DNA from: an uncultured Candidatus Saccharibacteria bacterium
Lineage (GTDB): Bacteria > Patescibacteriota > Saccharimonadia > Saccharimonadales > UBA4665
DNA: 64,000 bases
Direction: 5' to 3'
NCBI GenBank assembly: GCA_963841325.1
Contig: CAWJBZ010000004.1
Location: forward strand, 27,076-91,075
Shown here: piece after piece, positions 50,765 to 64,000 of the stretch
How positions within the stretch are numbered: position 1 is the first letter of the stretch
Layout: each line of letters begins with the position of its first letter
Position numbers and translations under genes: made by a program
Notes under the pieces: generated by a model
What the model saw: the letters and a program-made list of their open reading frames with translations, nothing else
What the model was told of the DNA's origin: nothing
Databases searched by the model: none

Positions 50765-51634
50765 ATGATTAGTGCCCATAATCGAAACAGAATTACTCGG
50801 CTCAAAAAAGCATTCGAGCAACTTAGAATTGACAAAGGTTCTCTACTCACTTTGTTAGAAGAAGCCGAGCTACCAGAATTAGTGTATAACTCTAACGCTA
50901 TCGAAAACTCTACTCTAACACTTAAAGAGACAGAACAAATATTACTTGAACTTGAAGTCGCCAGAAATGTTAGTGTGCGGGAATTATTTGAGGCTAAAAA
51001 CTTAGCTAGAGTTATTCAATATTTACAAAATAATCAAAACCTCGAACTCAATAAAGAGAATGTACTATTGTTGCACCGAATGCTTATAGGCAGTATTAAT
51101 GATGAGATTGCTGGAAGATTTAGAAGAAGAAATGAGTATGTCCGTGTTGGAACACATATAGCCCCAGCACCAGAGCGTGTTGAGCAATTGCTTGATAATC
51201 TTTTGATTGAATTCAAGAGTGCGGATAATAGTTATTTTATTGACCGTATTGCGTACTTTCACTTGGAGTTTGAACGTATTCATCCATTTGTTGATGGCAA
51301 CGGGCGTATTGGCAGGGTACTGCTTAATTTACAACTTAAACAACTTGGCTATCCACCGGTTATTATCCAAAGTAAGGGCAAGATTGATTATTATTATCCC
51401 GCATTTATTGAATATCAAGAGCTCAAACATACTGGTCGGTTGGAGTATTTAGTCATGTTGGCAACTATTGAGTCCTTGAATAAACGTTTAACGTATTTAC
51501 GCGGGCAAAACATAGTAAAACTGACTGACTATGCTAAAACAAATAAACAATCTATAAATACTCTTATCAATGCTGCTCGCCGACAAACAATTTCTGCCTT
51601 TCGTGAAAAAGGTGTTTGGAAAATTGGGCTATAA
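50765..51634 (+). CDS. Fic-family protein (AMPylase-type) with N-terminal auto-inhibitory motif
   Basis: 289 aa. Canonical Fic motif [12 protein letters not shown]. An upstream SNAIEN matches the inhibitory (S/T)xxxE(G/N) helix motif. Confidence 0.88.
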
Positions 51635-51729
51635 CTGTATTTTTATGAACATGTGGCTATATCCAAATCTTCGGTAATTGCGGTTCTGACTTCTCGGACT
51701 ACAGTGGACCAAATCCGGGGATATTACTG

Positions 51730-52281
51730 TTGCCTAAGCAATGTTTAAGCAACTGTCATTACTGTGTACAATTAAGATTAATGAAAAGACCTGTACAGTT
51801 TCGGGATCCTGATTTAGATACTAGCGGTGATGTCATCGGATTTTATGAGCGTGAGTTTTATGTTTTTAGTAACTTCTCTTCGTTCCAGGTTGATTGGAGA
51901 GGGCGGCGTTGGCCAACTTCTGAACATGCTTATCAAGCTTCACACTTTTTGGATACGGCACCCGAATTAGTAGAGACTATTTTCAAAGCCCGTTCGGCCC
52001 ATGAGGCCTATAAAATAGCCCAAGCCAACGCCGATAAAGCGCCCAAAAATTGGGAGGAAATTAAAGTTGGCATTATGTATGAGATCTGTAGGTTGAAAAT
52101 GCTTCAAAACCCCTATGTTTTACATAAACTTCTACAAAGCGGTGATTTAGATATGGTGGAAGATTCTACAAAAGATAATTTCTGGGGTTGGGGGCCAAAT
52201 AAAGATGGCCGTAATGAGTTGGGTAGGATCTGGATGAAGCTGCGGGCTCAATGGCGCTCAGGTGAAATTACTACCAAATAA
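51730..52281 (+). CDS. NADAR (YbiA/DUF1768) family protein
   Basis: FSNFSSFQVDWRGRRWPTSEHAYQASHF and FWGWGPNKDGRNELGRIWMKLR match the NADAR signature. The true start is probably the Met at 51781 (MKRPVQF). Confidence 0.8.
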   Translation: MPKQCLSNCHYCVQLRLMKRPVQFRDPDLDTSGDVIGFYEREFYVFSNFSSFQVDWRGRRWPTSEHAYQASHFLDTAPELVETIFKARSAHEAYKIAQANADKAPKNWEEIKVGIMYEICRLKMLQNPYVLHKLLQSGDLDMVEDSTKDNFWGWGPNKDGRNELGRIWMKLRAQWRSGEITTK

Positions 52282-57174: not shown

Positions 57175-58566
57175 TTAGTAACTAAGTAATAGTTCACTAC
57201 TATTGGTCTGAATCACCAAACGCCACCCTGACTTCTGTAAACTGGTTAATAATTGGTTGTTAAGGCTGCTCTTGGACAACAGAACACAATGAATATCGTA
57301 CTTGGAAAATTGTTCTTTTCTGATTGTTTTGTTTTCAATTACTTGATTATAAATATTTAGATACTTTTGGCCTGAACTGTTACGCCAAGATGGCATTCGT
57401 CCGTCTATGTAAACTGGTTGGGAGGGTAGTTGCCATATGAGATATCCACCATAGTTATAGTCGTTAAATAAATTTCCATTACATGGATGAGCTCGTAAAT
57501 AAGCAACGGCTTGAACTGGATATGGCATATTACGCTGTGGCCACGGGATAAAGGCAGCAACAAAAACATAGATCAACCATCCAACAATAAGCAACGCAAA
57601 CGTTCTAATAACAACTTTACGTGGACGATCTAATTCCTTTGGCAATTGGTCTTTGATCTCTTCATAATATTTCTCTAGGTCTTTGACTGCGGCGATAACG
57701 AAAAGGGGTACATTTCTGGTTGCCGCCATGGCGGCTGCAAGCATTATCGGTCCTATGTCTAACCAATTGGCTAGTTTCTTCCGGCGCAATAACCAAAAAC
57801 CGGCTCCCCACAGACAAACAAAAGCAATTGCTGCCATTGGTAAATATAAAATAGCCCATTCGTCTATTTGGAAATGTAATGAGCTGTCAAATGTAGTTCG
57901 GGCAATTTCTACGTATAGGTTGAAGCCATAGGGGTTAATAAATGTGGCAATAATACTTAACGCCAGAGTGGCAGCCAGTATTTTTTGCCGTTTTCTAACC
58001 AGGTAATATGCCAAAATAGCTAGTCCAACGACGAATCCGGCATGCAAATTTGCCCACAGTACAAACATTAGGGGCATCAACCATATCCAGCGACCGTAGA
58101 GACTGGTAACTACTTTAAGTAAGACGGCTAAAAGAAGTACTGTCCAAGCTATTGGTCTGATGCCGGCATATGGCGATAAGGCTGCTACAGCCAGCAATAA
58201 CACTAATAACCGCGATCTGGCACTAACTATAAACAGGGAAGCGGCCCATAGACCGGCAAAAACCACAGCTAACAGGTTATAGCCACCAACGCCATAAAGT
58301 AATGAAACGATAACGTCATTACCCCATTCATGGTCAATCCAGTGAAAATTACGGGCAGTATAGGTAAAGATATCGTGGCTTGGGATACCATGAGCTCTGA
58401 TGTAGTTTCCGGCTTGTAAATGCCAGCCGAAATCTGGGTCTATTCTGACCCAAGCTATTAAGAAGAAGCCAATAAAGACTAAAATGATCTTCAGGCATAA
58501 GTTAACTTTGGGTCGGTGCAATAGAGTGCTGACAGCATGTGATACTTGCTTCATTTGTCTCGTCAT
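57175..58566 (-). CDS. Large polytopic membrane protein (GT-C-type glycosyltransferase-like, tentative)
   Basis: 463 aa, about 10 TM helices. Acidic first loop (RIDPDFGWHL) and a C-terminal soluble domain of about 110 aa. Called on architecture only. Confidence 0.35.
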   Translation of the reverse strand: MTRQMKQVSHAVSTLLHRPKVNLCLKIILVFIGFFLIAWVRIDPDFGWHLQAGNYIRAHGIPSHDIFTYTARNFHWIDHEWGNDVIVSLLYGVGGYNLLAVVFAGLWAASLFIVSARSRLLVLLLAVAALSPYAGIRPIAWTVLLLAVLLKVVTSLYGRWIWLMPLMFVLWANLHAGFVVGLAILAYYLVRKRQKILAATLALSIIATFINPYGFNLYVEIARTTFDSSLHFQIDEWAILYLPMAAIAFVCLWGAGFWLLRRKKLANWLDIGPIMLAAAMAATRNVPLFVIAAVKDLEKYYEEIKDQLPKELDRPRKVVIRTFALLIVGWLIYVFVAAFIPWPQRNMPYPVQAVAYLRAHPCNGNLFNDYNYGGYLIWQLPSQPVYIDGRMPSWRNSSGQKYLNIYNQVIENKTIRKEQFSKYDIHCVLLSKSSLNNQLLTSLQKSGWRLVIQTNSSELLLSY

Positions 58567-58748: not shown

Positions 58749-59177
58749 TTAGCCAGCACCGCCGCTGCTATTTACAGTGGAAGCCTGGTTAATGACAAAG
58801 TGAACGACCAACTGCGCTAGAACGACTACTACTAAACCCACCAGGGCATAGATAATCGTAGTTTTAGCTGCGCCCACCCGGCTACTGTCACCACCTGAGG
58901 TTATGTATCTTAAGCCACCGACAATGATCATAACAACCGCTATCACCCCAACGATAGCTGAGAAAATATTCACAATATTGTCGAGCAGGGTTTGGAAACT
59001 GCTGGTAGTGGTTGATGGACAACCGGTACTACCGGACAGATCAAAACTAGTCCCACTACAAATTCCGTTGGTGATATTAACCTGAGCTGCTACTACCGCC
59101 GGTAAAGCCAGTGTCGGTACTGCAGCTATAAACAACATACTTAGTGCTATAGCCACATTCTTTAATTTCTTAGTCAT
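58749..59177 (-). CDS. VirB2/TrbC-like (T4SS pilin-like) protein, paralogue 1
   Basis: Start placed at MTKKLKNVAIALSMLFIAAVPTLALPAVVAAQ (signal peptide). Cys pair CSGTSFDLSGSTGC. Two-helix hairpin IVGVIAVVMIIVGGLRYITSGGDSSRVGAAKTTIIYALVGLVVVVLAQLVVHFV. Confidence 0.65.
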   Translation of the reverse strand: MTKKLKNVAIALSMLFIAAVPTLALPAVVAAQVNITNGICSGTSFDLSGSTGCPSTTTSSFQTLLDNIVNIFSAIVGVIAVVMIIVGGLRYITSGGDSSRVGAAKTTIIYALVGLVVVVLAQLVVHFVINQASTVNSSGGAG

Positions 59178-59294
59178 CGATTGCCTTTCTTTAGGAATAT
59201 ACCTATTAAACTTTATAGCATATATAAATGAGTTAGTCATCAAGCATTATAAACCAGTTGACTTATTTACATAAGCCTAATGTAGAGTTGTTGA

Positions 59295-59720
59295 TTAGGT
59301 ACTTTTAGTAACTTGGTTAATAACAAAGTGAACGATCAGCTGTGCTAGAACGACAATAATTATACCGACGATTGCATATAGTAAAGAAGCTCTTGCTTTG
59401 GATACGCTCTGTGGATTACCACCAGAGGTTATAAACTGTAGGCCAGCAATAATGATCATAATAACCGCAACTACTCCCACAATTATCGAGAAAATATTAA
59501 TGATTGTGGTTAGGGTGGTATTTAATTGACCACCGTTATCGTTGCAAGAATTACCAGTTACTAAGTTAACCCCCTGGCAAGCTTCGGTGGCAGCAGGACT
59601 CATAGCCATATAGTACGGCATTGGCCTAATTGATGATGCTCCAGCGCTGCCTACGAGTATTATGCTTGCTAAACCCGCTAGAACCAGACTAGTATTCAAT
59701 AATTTTGTTATTAACTTCAT
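59295..59720 (-). CDS. VirB2/TrbC-like (T4SS pilin-like) protein, paralogue 2
   Basis: 141 aa. Signal peptide, Cys pair CQGVNLVTGNSC, and the same hairpin (IAGLQFITSGGNPQSVSKARASLLYAIVGIIIVVLAQLIVHFV). Confidence 0.65.
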   Translation of the reverse strand: MKLITKLLNTSLVLAGLASIILVGSAGASSIRPMPYYMAMSPAATEACQGVNLVTGNSCNDNGGQLNTTLTTIINIFSIIVGVVAVIMIIIAGLQFITSGGNPQSVSKARASLLYAIVGIIIVVLAQLIVHFVINQVTKST

Positions 59721-59739
59721 GAATATTCTTATGACTAAA

Positions 59740-60135
59740 TCATACCTTACTTAGTACAAACCCAATAATACTCTCGGCCAAAACAATGATGACAATGCCG
59801 ACGATAGCACCGATTAGTGCACCTCTTGCACCTTGAGCTTTAGCTGGATCACCACCAGACGTAATGAAGCGTAAGCCTGAAACTATAATAACTATAACTG
59901 CAGCGATGCCTGCTATTGTTGCTATGATAAACGATATTTTAAGCAACAAGCCGTTAGGGCCAATTAAAGGGTTACTAGATGGATTGCTACCTGACACCCT
60001 TTCCTGGCACACTGTGCTATTGCTCCCACTGCCACTGCATACGTTATTAAATAAAACGTCAGCTGAAGCTATGGTTGGCATCAATCCAATGGCGAATACT
60101 AATACTATTATTAGAACTTTTGATTTACTGATCAT
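59740..60135 (-). CDS. VirB2/TrbC-like (T4SS pilin-like) protein, paralogue 3
   Basis: 131 aa. Signal peptide, Cys pair CSGSGSNSTVC, and hairpin VSGLRFITSGGDPAKAQGARGALIGAIVGIVIIVLAESII. Confidence 0.65.
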   Translation of the reverse strand: MISKSKVLIIVLVFAIGLMPTIASADVLFNNVCSGSGSNSTVCQERVSGSNPSSNPLIGPNGLLLKISFIIATIAGIAAVIVIIVSGLRFITSGGDPAKAQGARGALIGAIVGIVIIVLAESIIGFVLSKV

Positions 60136-60806
60136 AAAAACCTACCTAACACTAGTGACACAATCGATTCTGCCACAATCGCAACAATCAATCCTACTAA
60201 TGCATAAATGACTGTGCTTCTTGCTGCTGCAGCGGCTTGTGGATCTCCGCTAGAGAAGACATAGCGAAGTCCACCAATAACAACGAACATTAGTGCTAGC
60301 GCTCCAATTATGCCAAAGGCATCCTGGAGAATAGTACCGACAATAGCCCCATTTACAGTATTTGTAGAATAAGGTAGGGAATTAAGATTAAGAGTCGCGT
60401 TATTAGAAGCAGATATATTACCACTACCATTACCAGCACCTATACGATTGCCCAAATAAGATATGGTGGGGATGGCAATAATTGCAACAGCTAAACCAAC
60501 AAGAGCATATATTATGGTTGACTGAGCCTGGGCTGTTGCGTTTGGTGAGCCTTGGCTCGTTATATATCTAATACCACCGTATATCACGAAAATAACCGCC
60601 ACTAGACCCGCTATCATCAACAAGTCATCAATAATTGCCAGCAGAACAAGTAATGCATCGTTGGGACCGTTTAGTACAACATTGCAAGCCCCGGAGTTAT
60701 CGGGCTGAACGTTCAAATACGCATACCAAGGCTTCAGACCTAAAAAGCTCCATTGTTGGCAACTTGTAGTCGTTGTAGCTGCGAAAATTTTCAATAAGCT
60801 AACCAT
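60132..60806 (-). CDS. Tandem double VirB2/TrbC-like pilin-domain protein, paralogue 4
   Basis: 224 aa with two complete hairpins: YGGIRYITSQGSPNATAQAQSTIIYALVGLAVAIIAI and IGGLRYVFSSGDPQAAAAARSTVIYALVGLIVAIVAESIV. The 4-nt ATGA overlap (60132-60135) joins its stop to the start of paralogue 3. Confidence 0.65.
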   Translation of the reverse strand: MVSLLKIFAATTTTSCQQWSFLGLKPWYAYLNVQPDNSGACNVVLNGPNDALLVLLAIIDDLLMIAGLVAVIFVIYGGIRYITSQGSPNATAQAQSTIIYALVGLAVAIIAIPTISYLGNRIGAGNGSGNISASNNATLNLNSLPYSTNTVNGAIVGTILQDAFGIIGALALMFVVIGGLRYVFSSGDPQAAAAARSTVIYALVGLIVAIVAESIVSLVLGRFL

Positions 60807-61272
60807 GCAAGAAACCTCCTGGCATTAGGAACTGCAAAAATGCATATAACAGTATATACGCAAGTAACCCAAGCAGTGCATTGGTGATGTGCCTTCTCCC
60901 AGAAGCAAGCCTCTGCGGGTCTCCGCTAGATGAGCTGTATTCTATCCCGCCAATTATCACGGCAACTACAACTACCAACCCGACTGCACCAGATAAAACA
61001 TTTATGAATGGATTAATATATTTAGCAAATAAACATGCCATAGGGGTGCTTTGACTGCCATTAGGACAACATGTGATTTGACCACCCGTACTACTTCCAG
61101 ACTGCACAGCAACTTCTCCTGATGGACAAGTACTAGTATCGGCCATGTAATTCAGGGGAGCAGCAAAAACGCTTGGTCCCATAGAAGCTGTTAGGATAGT
61201 AAAAATTCCCAAAAACAATACATGCCCAAATATTCTCTGTTTGTATTTCATAATATGCATCATAAAGGTCAT
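60799..61272 (-). CDS. VirB2/TrbC-like (T4SS pilin-like) protein, divergent paralogue 5
   Basis: 157 aa. Signal peptide, 4 Cys, and hairpin IGGIEYSSSSGDPQRLASGRRHITNALLGLLAYILLYAF. Overlaps paralogue 4 by 8 nt. Start ambiguous (several Met between 61251 and 61272). Confidence 0.55.
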   Translation of the reverse strand: MTFMMHIMKYKQRIFGHVLFLGIFTILTASMGPSVFAAPLNYMADTSTCPSGEVAVQSGSSTGGQITCCPNGSQSTPMACLFAKYINPFINVLSGAVGLVVVVAVIIGGIEYSSSSGDPQRLASGRRHITNALLGLLAYILLYAFLQFLMPGGFLHG

Positions 61273-62472: not shown

Positions 62473-64000
62473 TATGCACACAAAAAATCTTCCTAAAATT
62501 TTGGGCGTTATTTTAGCGCTCCTTGCCTTTTTGGTGGCTTTAGGATTACCAATCGTTGATGGTACTCAAGTCTTTGCTTCACTGCCCCCTACTAATAGTG
62601 GTCCTCCAGTCGCTCAGTGGACAGACTATTGCGATATTACTTTAGGCAGTATTGCTTTTAATGGTGACCCAAAGGGTAATATAGACGGCACCCCGTGTAA
62701 TTTTACGACCAAAACATATAGCGGTACCACCTATGCAATGCTCTATGATACGCCTTTAGACTCAACCAGTTGCGCTGATGCTTTGATGTTCACGTCTACG
62801 GGCAGTGCAGATGCAACGATCACGGCCGCCTCTACTGCACAATTCGCACCTGGTTCCGGCTACCCTTCATGTACCTACAACTATAATGATCCGAATGGAT
62901 TTACGGTAGATATTACAGGCAATCGCCTACAGGCAACATGGACCAGCTATTCGCCGGCTGAAATTACCTATCTTGGGACTGTCTATGGTAATTTAAGCAG
63001 TAATTATAGTGGTGATACTGTCACCCTGGAAGAGAACACCCAAACCCTTTTCAATTGTCTCGATTTCATACAAGTATCCGGCAACAGTAGTACTTCTTAT
63101 GAAAATATTAAGACAGCAAATTTAATTATCAATCAATGCACTGGTTATGGTAATACACCATCTACTTATAAAACAGTTGCTATTACATTGACAAATTCTT
63201 ATGCTTCTGCTCCTGGTGCTCCTGGTGCTCCTGGAGGTGGCAGTGGCAGTACGACTGTCAATTATAACTGCCCCATCACTAACCCTGCAGCCGGGTGGGC
63301 TCTGTGCCCTATATTTGACGTCGGTGTTGATGCTGCTAATGCACTAAGTACACAGATCAGCAACTTTTTGTATATACCTACAGCTGGCATTTTTACTGGT
63401 AATAACAATTTACAAACAGCATTCGATAATTTCCGTGACATTGGACTAGCAATAATGGTCATAGCCGGTTTAATAATGGTGGTTAGTCAAGCCGCCGGAC
63501 TGGAAATATTTGCAGCCTATACAGTACGCAAGGCCTTACCACGACTTGTAATAGCTATCATCGGTATCTCATTGGCTTGGTCGTTGTTAGAGTTTGTGGT
63601 TACATTTTTTGATGACATCGGTATATGGGCTAATAATCTTGTTATGATGTCTGTAAATGCCACAAGCGCCGGTGTTACATTTAACCCTGCCCAAGCGCTT
63701 GGATCTTTGGTGGATGGAGTAGCGCTTGGTGGTGTTGCAGTTGTGGCACTGGGGGCAATAGGAGCTTTTAGTTTACTTCTGACAGCACTTCTAGCTCTGT
63801 TTGTAGGATTCCTTATTCTTTCCTTACGATGGTTGGTGGTGGTCGTTTGTATTTTAACCGCACCTCTAGCTATCGCCGCTTATGTTCTGCCCGGAACAAC
63901 CAAATTATGGACTTTTTGGAAGGATTCCTTACTTGGAGCTCTAATAATGTATCCATTAATCATGGCTTTTCTAGCTGCCGGTTTGGCGGCATCCTATATT
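62473..64000 (+). CDS. Large VirB6/TrbL-like polytopic membrane protein with ~300-aa Cys-containing N-terminal ectodomain (3' end beyond window)
   Basis: I translated frame 1 from the ATG at 62473 to the window end with no stop (509 codons); it is absent from the track only because it has no stop. Signal/anchor, 8-Cys domain, APGAPGAPGGGSGS linker, then at least 6 TM helices. Confidence 0.5.

Follow-up and report, generated by a model that had tools for sequence, protein, structure and literature searches.

The window (the whole stretch of 64,000 nucleotides that was analysed) comes from the 0.71-Mb assembly of a member of the Saccharimonadales (TM7/CPR). It contains five tandem pilin genes on the reverse strand, at 58749–61272, with six PF18895 hairpins in all, and the second of these genes encodes two hairpins in one chain. 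We consider it probable, from the sequence and the predicted structure, that this ORF encodes a genuine four-helix membrane protein made of two different VirB2-like pilin hairpins. In the explanation that we prefer, and hold to be likely as a whole, these are modules N and C of the six-pilin set of a T4SS, derived by the loss of the boundary between two genes and acting as an N–C pair. The fusion of these modules suggests that the two pilins work side by side as a fixed pair. Further in the text the modules are referred to, in the order of the array, as 1, N, C, 3, 4 and 5, and the fusion of two adjacent modules in one gene is denoted by the equals sign (N=C).

The frame of the fused gene is open throughout and comprises 224 codons and the stop codon. 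Coordinates of the gene, of its parts and of its neighbours are given in Table 1. The ATG at position 60806 is taken as the start, as it is backed by the AGGAGG sequence in front of it and by homologues that align from residues 1–3 on. This start overlaps the stop of the module 1 gene by 8 nt (60799–60806), and the stop of the fused gene forms an ATGA overlap with the start of the module 3 gene. With start/stop overlaps on both sides, the fused gene lies within a translationally coupled operon.

Table 1. Features of the fused pilin gene, its parts and its neighbours (window coordinates).
Feature	Position	Strand	Basis
Pilin module 1 gene, 157 aa	60799..61272	-	ORF; PF18895 at 26.1 bits, slightly below the cut-off of 26.6
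Shine-Dalgarno sequence AGGAGG, 8 nt 5' of the ATG of the fused gene, within the 3' end of the module 1 gene	60815..60820	-	Read from the sequence
Fused double pilin gene, modules N and C (second and third of six)	60132..60806	-	ORF; PF18895 twice; full-length homologues; identical independent assemblies
N-terminal head, residues 1–47	60666..60806	-	Conserved columns, AlphaFold2 model, hydropathy
Hairpin N, residues 48–123, two long hydrophobic helices, loop GGIRYITSQGSP	60438..60665	-	PF18895, hydropathy, AlphaFold2 model
Linker, residues 124–153, Gly/Ser/Asn-rich, predicted disordered	60348..60437	-	pLDDT below 50
Hairpin C, residues 154–224, two hydrophobic helices, loop GGLRYVFSSGDP	60135..60347	-	PF18895, hydropathy, AlphaFold2 model
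Pilin module 3 gene, 131 aa	59740..60135	-	ORF, PF18895
Pilin module 4 gene, 141 aa	59295..59720	-	ORF, PF18895
Pilin module 5 gene, 164 aa in the longest frame	58749..59243	-	ORF, PF18895
Large polytopic protein, divergent from the pilin array, runs off the window	62474..64000	+	ORF; synteny

Two separate stretches of the fused protein are matched by PF18895 (T4SS_pilin; 65.5 bits, cut-off 26.6), and two by NCBIfam NF045849 (46.3 bits, cut-off 40). A six-frame scan of the genome with PF18895 also found both hairpins (C4:87225-87410 and C4:87531-87698). The hydropathy profile of the protein has four long hydrophobic segments. In the AlphaFold2 model, built on an alignment of 65 sequences (mean pLDDT 75, pTM 0.55), helices occupy residues 48–83, 88–123, 154–184 and 189–223. 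The two hairpins of the model (48–123 and 154–223) are thus close to the positions at which the preliminary description had placed two complete hairpins of a single ORF, approximately 55–115 and 165–224. By hydropathy, the model and the alignment, both halves consist of two hydrophobic helices and a short polar loop of the form G-x-R-Y-x-x-S-x-G-D/S-P. Aligned to each other, as had been proposed, the halves are 50% identical over 64 aa (E=3e-18). The fused protein yielded no match to TrbC (PF04956) at E≤0.01. A Foldseek search of the PDB with the model, a comparison that is uninformative for a pair of long helical hairpins, retrieved nothing specific: all matches had E above 0.3 and were generic helical bundles (F-BAR domains, designed coiled coils). 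A profile search of PDB sequences with the fused pilin gave no meaningful match.

The 47-residue head in front of hairpin N is modelled as a small beta-hairpin and carries the Cys16/Cys41 pair and the FLGLKPWYAYL motif; columns C16, F21, G23, W27, Y30 and C41 are conserved in the alignment of homologues. Judging by hydropathy, the fused pilin lacks a canonical signal peptide, there being no hydrophobic segment before residue 41. Typical PF18895 members have one ahead of the hairpin, but its absence is usual in modules N and C. The linker occupies the place of the stop codon, the start codon and the short leader of split relatives, and keeps an L-x-S-L-P motif. The Asn/Gly/Ser-rich string GAGNGSGNISASNNATLNLNS, which the preliminary description had quoted from the linker together with several sequons, is indeed present at residues 123–143. 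Four N-x-S/T sequons exist in the protein (N89, N126, N130 and N136), but they are not conserved: the linkers of fused homologues contain 0.55 sequons each, against 0.54 expected from their composition, and the position is not fixed. A role in glycosylation, at which the sequons might hint, was set aside as unsupported: besides the lack of enrichment and of a fixed position, the neighbouring 463-aa protein has no Pfam or NCBIfam match.

Paralogues 3–5 of the window show weak matches to TrbC (PF04956; 17.5–24.7 bits with the cut-off of 27.9, E from 3e-5 to 5e-3). The large divergent ORF at the end of the window holds the TrbL_3/VirB6-like position of the related loci L001, L002 and L004. The part of it present in the window has no Pfam match, and a scan of the genome with PF19590 (TrbL_3) produced no match, but neither did its controls, so that it is uninformative. 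Past the end of the window, matches to PrgI (C4:92562) and to AAA_10 (C4:95469-96449) indicate PrgI/VirB3-like and VirB4-like genes. By its gene neighbourhood and module count we assign the locus to the published T4SS of Saccharibacteria.

Modules 4 and 5 are by far the closest pair of the set: their mean identity within a genome is 66% (61% for those of the window), and in 56 of 141 cases they cross-match between positions across genomes. This closeness would fit a later duplication or gene conversion. In the window the pilin operon is directly followed by the gene of the 463-aa polytopic membrane protein mentioned above (57175–58566, reverse strand). In other genomes HSP20 directly follows the array, so that the gene of this protein is an insertion relative to those genomes. 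A second compact T4SS-like cluster (locus L181, G000:C4:20500-27075) lies immediately upstream of window position 1. It comprises a 111-aa PF18895 pilin, a PrgI-like protein of 170 aa, a 229-aa protein, a VirB4-like ATPase of 578 aa and a 169-aa protein. It also encodes a 487-aa protein in which an N-terminal pilin hairpin is fused to a polytopic body at the VirB6-like position, the body being assigned by eye and by its position; this fusion of a pilin with a channel protein hints that hairpins contact the VirB6 component. Elsewhere in the window, at 50765–52281 of the forward strand, a gene for a Fic/DOC-family protein (289 aa) is followed by that of a stand-alone NADAR-domain protein (183 aa).

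Species genomes of the order (201) and of the family (121) were searched for the array. The array was excised from 160 genomes, every hairpin was located with an HMM, and coordinate anchoring was applied; counting the window, the set contained 161 genomes. Exactly six hairpins in the order 1-N-C-3-4-5 were present in 122 of the 161, and arrays with fewer than six were mostly cut by a contig end. Among the 122 six-module arrays, 107 have all modules in separate genes, 12 have the N=C fusion, and three have C=3. When arrays with extra modules and those cut by contig ends are counted as well, the totals for the 161 genomes are 17 with N=C (the window included) and three with C=3. About 89% of the 161 species keep N and C apart as two genes. 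The comparison of orthologous loci that had been called for hence reveals both states among relatives, fused and split. No module is gained or lost where fusion occurs. The protein database contributed 1=N fusions (P0094, P0103, P0118; locus L004) and three-hairpin proteins (P0073, P0090). G229, a 97% complete genome of the window's genus, yielded no candidates in an initial look and nothing that matched the fused pilin at E≤1e-15; the array is either missing from this assembly or highly diverged.

The modules largely keep their identity across genomes. The best cross-genome match was the same module in 141 of 141 genomes for module 1, in 140 of 141 for N and in 136 of 141 for C; by this measure modules 3, 4 and 5 are less distinct from each other. 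Between N and C the identity is 35%, in fused and split genomes alike (0.349 vs 0.345), compared with 49% between N and its own orthologues and 42% between C and its own. Fusion has therefore joined two old, distinct paralogues without later homogenisation. Gene conversion between the halves after fusion was considered and rejected, since the N–C identity is equal in fused and split genomes.

The 224-aa product is on record in NCBI, Logan and ENA. Logan assemblies of two other runs, ERR11523659 and ERR11593882, match the window with 100% identity along 3.7 and 2.8 kb, the whole ORF included. About 65 protein clusters from Saccharimonadales metagenomes, 204–232 aa long, align with the fused pilin at 91–100% query coverage and 40–64% identity, and the fusion is found in 16 other species genomes. 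A shorter gene call of 161 aa (P0001, starting at Met64) is explained by the ENA contig L178, which has a chimeric join inside the fused gene. Pairs of sequences among the 65 fused homologues share on average 61% of residues in hairpin N, 56% in hairpin C and 38% in the linker. The two hairpins are equally conserved in the fused family, so the second half is not a decaying remnant.

A tree was built from the six concatenated modules of 141 genomes with FastTree or a quick IQ-TREE search. Its only data are the pilin modules, so it is their gene tree, and the fused group was defined with the tree already in view. The window groups with the same-genus genome G311 and with two other genomes, G247 and G272. 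This clade is well supported, consists of fused genomes throughout and lies within a set of split ones, and therefore the fusion is derived in the window's lineage. On this tree the N=C state requires nine changes, at least seven of the changes being forced by well-supported branches, and the fused genomes are spread over ten different family codes. Forcing all of them into one clade cost 581 log-likelihood units (AU p=1e-5), and a single origin of the N=C fusion was rejected accordingly.

In split genomes the gap between N and C ranges from −4 to +5 nt. The commonest frame of the N–C junction is +2 (ATGA-type overlap, 67 of 143 split junctions); at 45 of the 143 (31%) N and C are in the same frame and separated by one TAA or TAG. 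These in-frame junctions are a single point mutation away from fusion. In the nearest split relatives, module N ends in LGNKLGG followed by the stop codon, and module C opens with a short Met-leader (e.g. MLDRLILFATDLSPLPG). In the fused clade the Met-leader stretch is replaced by the Gly/Ser-rich linker, in which only the S-L-P motif is kept.

Modules of split arrays differ in their leaders. A hydrophobic signal peptide is present in modules 1, 3, 4 and 5 in 77–98% of genomes, in module N in 29% and in module C in 6%, and module C has about 27 residues before its hairpin. Fused linkers measure 15–32 aa in every case and are free of hydrophobic segments; the three C=3 fusions have lost both the signal peptide and the Cys head of module 3.

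These features are best explained as follows. In the ancestor of the clade formed by the window genome, its same-genus relative and two other genomes, the stop codon and the boundary of two tightly packed genes were lost, and the short leader of module C turned into a flexible Gly/Ser-rich linker that retains the L-P motif alone. By the VirB2 paradigm, and from which fusions occur, we infer that both hairpins insert with the N and C termini outside and the short loops inside, the linker then lying outside. Fusions always give an even number of membrane helices, which fits termini on the same (outer) side and an external linker. Module C, which has no signal peptide to direct it, could follow helix 2 of module N into the membrane. 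In the fused pilin, which lacks a canonical signal peptide, N-tail translocation is the assumed export route of the 47-residue head. The product would act as a pre-joined 1:1 N–C pair in an assembly that relatives build from six separate pilins, and the fusion would create no new role. It may be tolerated and recurrent because N and C are obligate neighbours with adjacent termini. As to the fixed 1:1 arrangement of two subunits in the preliminary description, two complete, different and conserved units are truly fused, and the ratio itself is a reasonable expectation.

Several other explanations of the fused frame were weighed. In many relatives there is an in-frame stop exactly at the N–C junction, and the related ENA contig L001 has frameshifts there; one could suppose that a stop codon or frameshift in the linker was lost in assembly and that the window really holds two genes. 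The probability of this is negligible. Assemblies of two other runs reproduce the sequence at 100% identity along 2.8 and 3.7 kb, the same open frame is found in the same-genus genome G311 and in about 65 protein clusters, and the fused linker lacks the Met-leader sequence of split genes. L001 is frameshifted in the module 1 gene as well, which marks it as an error-prone assembly; it was rejected as a split orthologue and not counted as split. The fused ORF is not an assembly artefact. We also find it extremely improbable that the junction stops of relatives are partly read in a programmed way, fused and split products coexisting, with the window carrying a constitutive version of the same device. 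In 45 split genomes N and C are in frame with one TAA or TAG between them, as such read-through would need, but this share of the 143 junctions is the chance expectation of one third and hence gives no sign of programmed read-through, and within a few nucleotides each downstream gene opens with its own start codon.

Alternatively, the gene may encode a polyprotein that is inserted as one chain and then cut in the linker, e.g. by type I signal peptidase, releasing two ordinary pilins. Helix 2 of module N would be read as an internal signal sequence, and the fusion would serve only the insertion of the leaderless module C. Helix 2 does run from inside to outside like the core of a signal peptide and is followed by small residues (RIGA-G), module C is leaderless in 94% of split arrays, and canonical TrbC/VirB2 pilins are trimmed by signal-peptidase-like enzymes. 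We nevertheless regard such cleavage as unlikely, given that no cleavage motif is conserved across the 65 fused proteins, whose linkers are only 38% identical, and that in other natural chains, of 3–17 hairpins, the linkers are only about 15–25 aa long. It had further been suggested that the covalent dimer is a specialised subunit with its own role as a filament tip, base or nucleator. The fusion is kept through a clade diverged to about 45–64% identity and so is at least not harmful. However, about 89% of the species that have this six-module array encode N and C separately, and such a role is not indicated; moreover, fused and split hairpins are equally diverged from each other, and the module count is unchanged where fusion occurs. 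A special role of this kind is therefore highly improbable in our view. Nor does the presence of the fusion in only about 10% of species indicate an advantage over neutrality. Rather than a novel type of subunit, it seems to be a union of obligate neighbours that is tolerated and has recurred.

A search of 1.84 billion representative proteins with a single-hairpin profile gave 78,859 matches, and the highest-scoring of these were natural chains of 2, 3, 4, 5, 6, 7, 8, 10, 11 and 17 hairpins. Since natural chains reach 17 hairpins, covalent joining is a broad habit of the pilin hairpin family. Multi-hairpin chains from public metagenomes (P0123-P0133) include, for example, a protein of 552 aa with six and one of 1775 aa with 17 PF18895 hairpins. 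The six-hairpin chain P0123 (L183:1777-3435) is encoded in an array with four other pilin genes.

To our knowledge, no T4SS had been shown before that of Saccharibacteria to be essential for the organism that carries it. As far as we know, monoderm T4SSs normally have no pilin, and for that reason the six VirB2-like pilins of this system are a puzzle. On a tentative reading, which we consider possible though rather doubtful, the six modules would be parts of one hetero-oligomeric tube or ring of fixed stoichiometry, in which neighbouring genes encode physically neighbouring hairpins, and not a major pilin accompanied by interchangeable surface variants. This reading draws on the occurrence of N=C fusion at least seven times, of C=3 twice and of 1=N in other lineages, as well as on the pilin hairpin joined to a VirB6-like body in the same genome and on CPR chains of up to 17 hairpins. 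If it is true, the architecture of this T4SS would be unlike the homopolymeric VirB2 pilus, and the fusions would provide a ready-made map of subunit adjacency.

It has been suggested that the pilin paralogues supply variants for different hosts (PMC12102498). Position-specific orthogroups (a clear pattern in modules 1, N and C), the order shared across 161 species and the repeated independent fusions of neighbours argue, contrary to this suggestion, that the modules are co-assembling parts. The fusions imply that successive hairpins have the ends to be joined, the C terminus of the first and the N terminus of the second, on the same side of the membrane and within the reach of a linker of 15–32 residues. 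The pattern of fusions thereby constrains how the six-pilin set fits together and may be used for structural modelling.

Proteolipid c subunits of V-type and archaeal A-type ATPases are also two-helix hairpins packed side by side, occurring singly or in chains of 2, 3 or many. As they illustrate, covalent hairpin chains usually mean side-by-side packing with fixed stoichiometry. The likeness of these subunits to the fused pilin is an analogy only, with no homology and a different machine. The pilin-like conjugal transfer protein Mbov_0395/MMCAP2_0565 from Mycoplasma ICEs (NF045849) shares with the fused pilin the VirB2-like hairpin of a T4SS in a wall-less or monoderm host, and differs from it in lineage and in the array context; the 46.3 bits of the fused pilin against this model are the sum of two hairpins, each matched to a single-hairpin model of 80 positions. 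VirB2, TrbC and TraA (PF04956) resemble it as small hydrophobic helix-loop-helix hairpins encoded in a T4SS locus, whereas the window's protein has two hairpins per chain, no canonical signal peptide and a monoderm host. In addition, TrbC matches in the window are below the Pfam cut-off, and the fused protein has none.

In Candidatus Southlakia epibionticum ML1 the locus SEML1_0006-0019 carries a six-pilin array that belongs to an essential T4SS (Wang et al. 2023, PMC10633639; reviewed in PMC12857230 and PMC12102498). This T4SS array was shown by Tn-seq in S. epibionticum ML1 to be essential for epibiotic growth (PMC10633639), and arrays of 2–11 pilin genes have been catalogued across Patescibacteria (PMC12102498). 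A two-hairpin pilin is not mentioned in PMC10633639, PMC12857230 or PMC12102498, and in the literature on PF18895/T4SS_pilin and on VirB2 of Saccharibacteria we found no paper describing fused pilins. The ML1 array and that of the window belong to the same Saccharibacteria lineage, have VirB6-like, PrgI/VirB3-like and VirB4-like neighbours, and consist of six sequence-divergent VirB2-like hairpin modules in tandem, the likeness being one of lineage, neighbourhood and count. They differ in that the published accounts present six pilins or arrays of pilin genes, whereas in the window the second and third modules are one gene. The fusion behind the double pilin is real, conserved and derived, has recurred, and joins two subunits that are obligate neighbours in an already known system.
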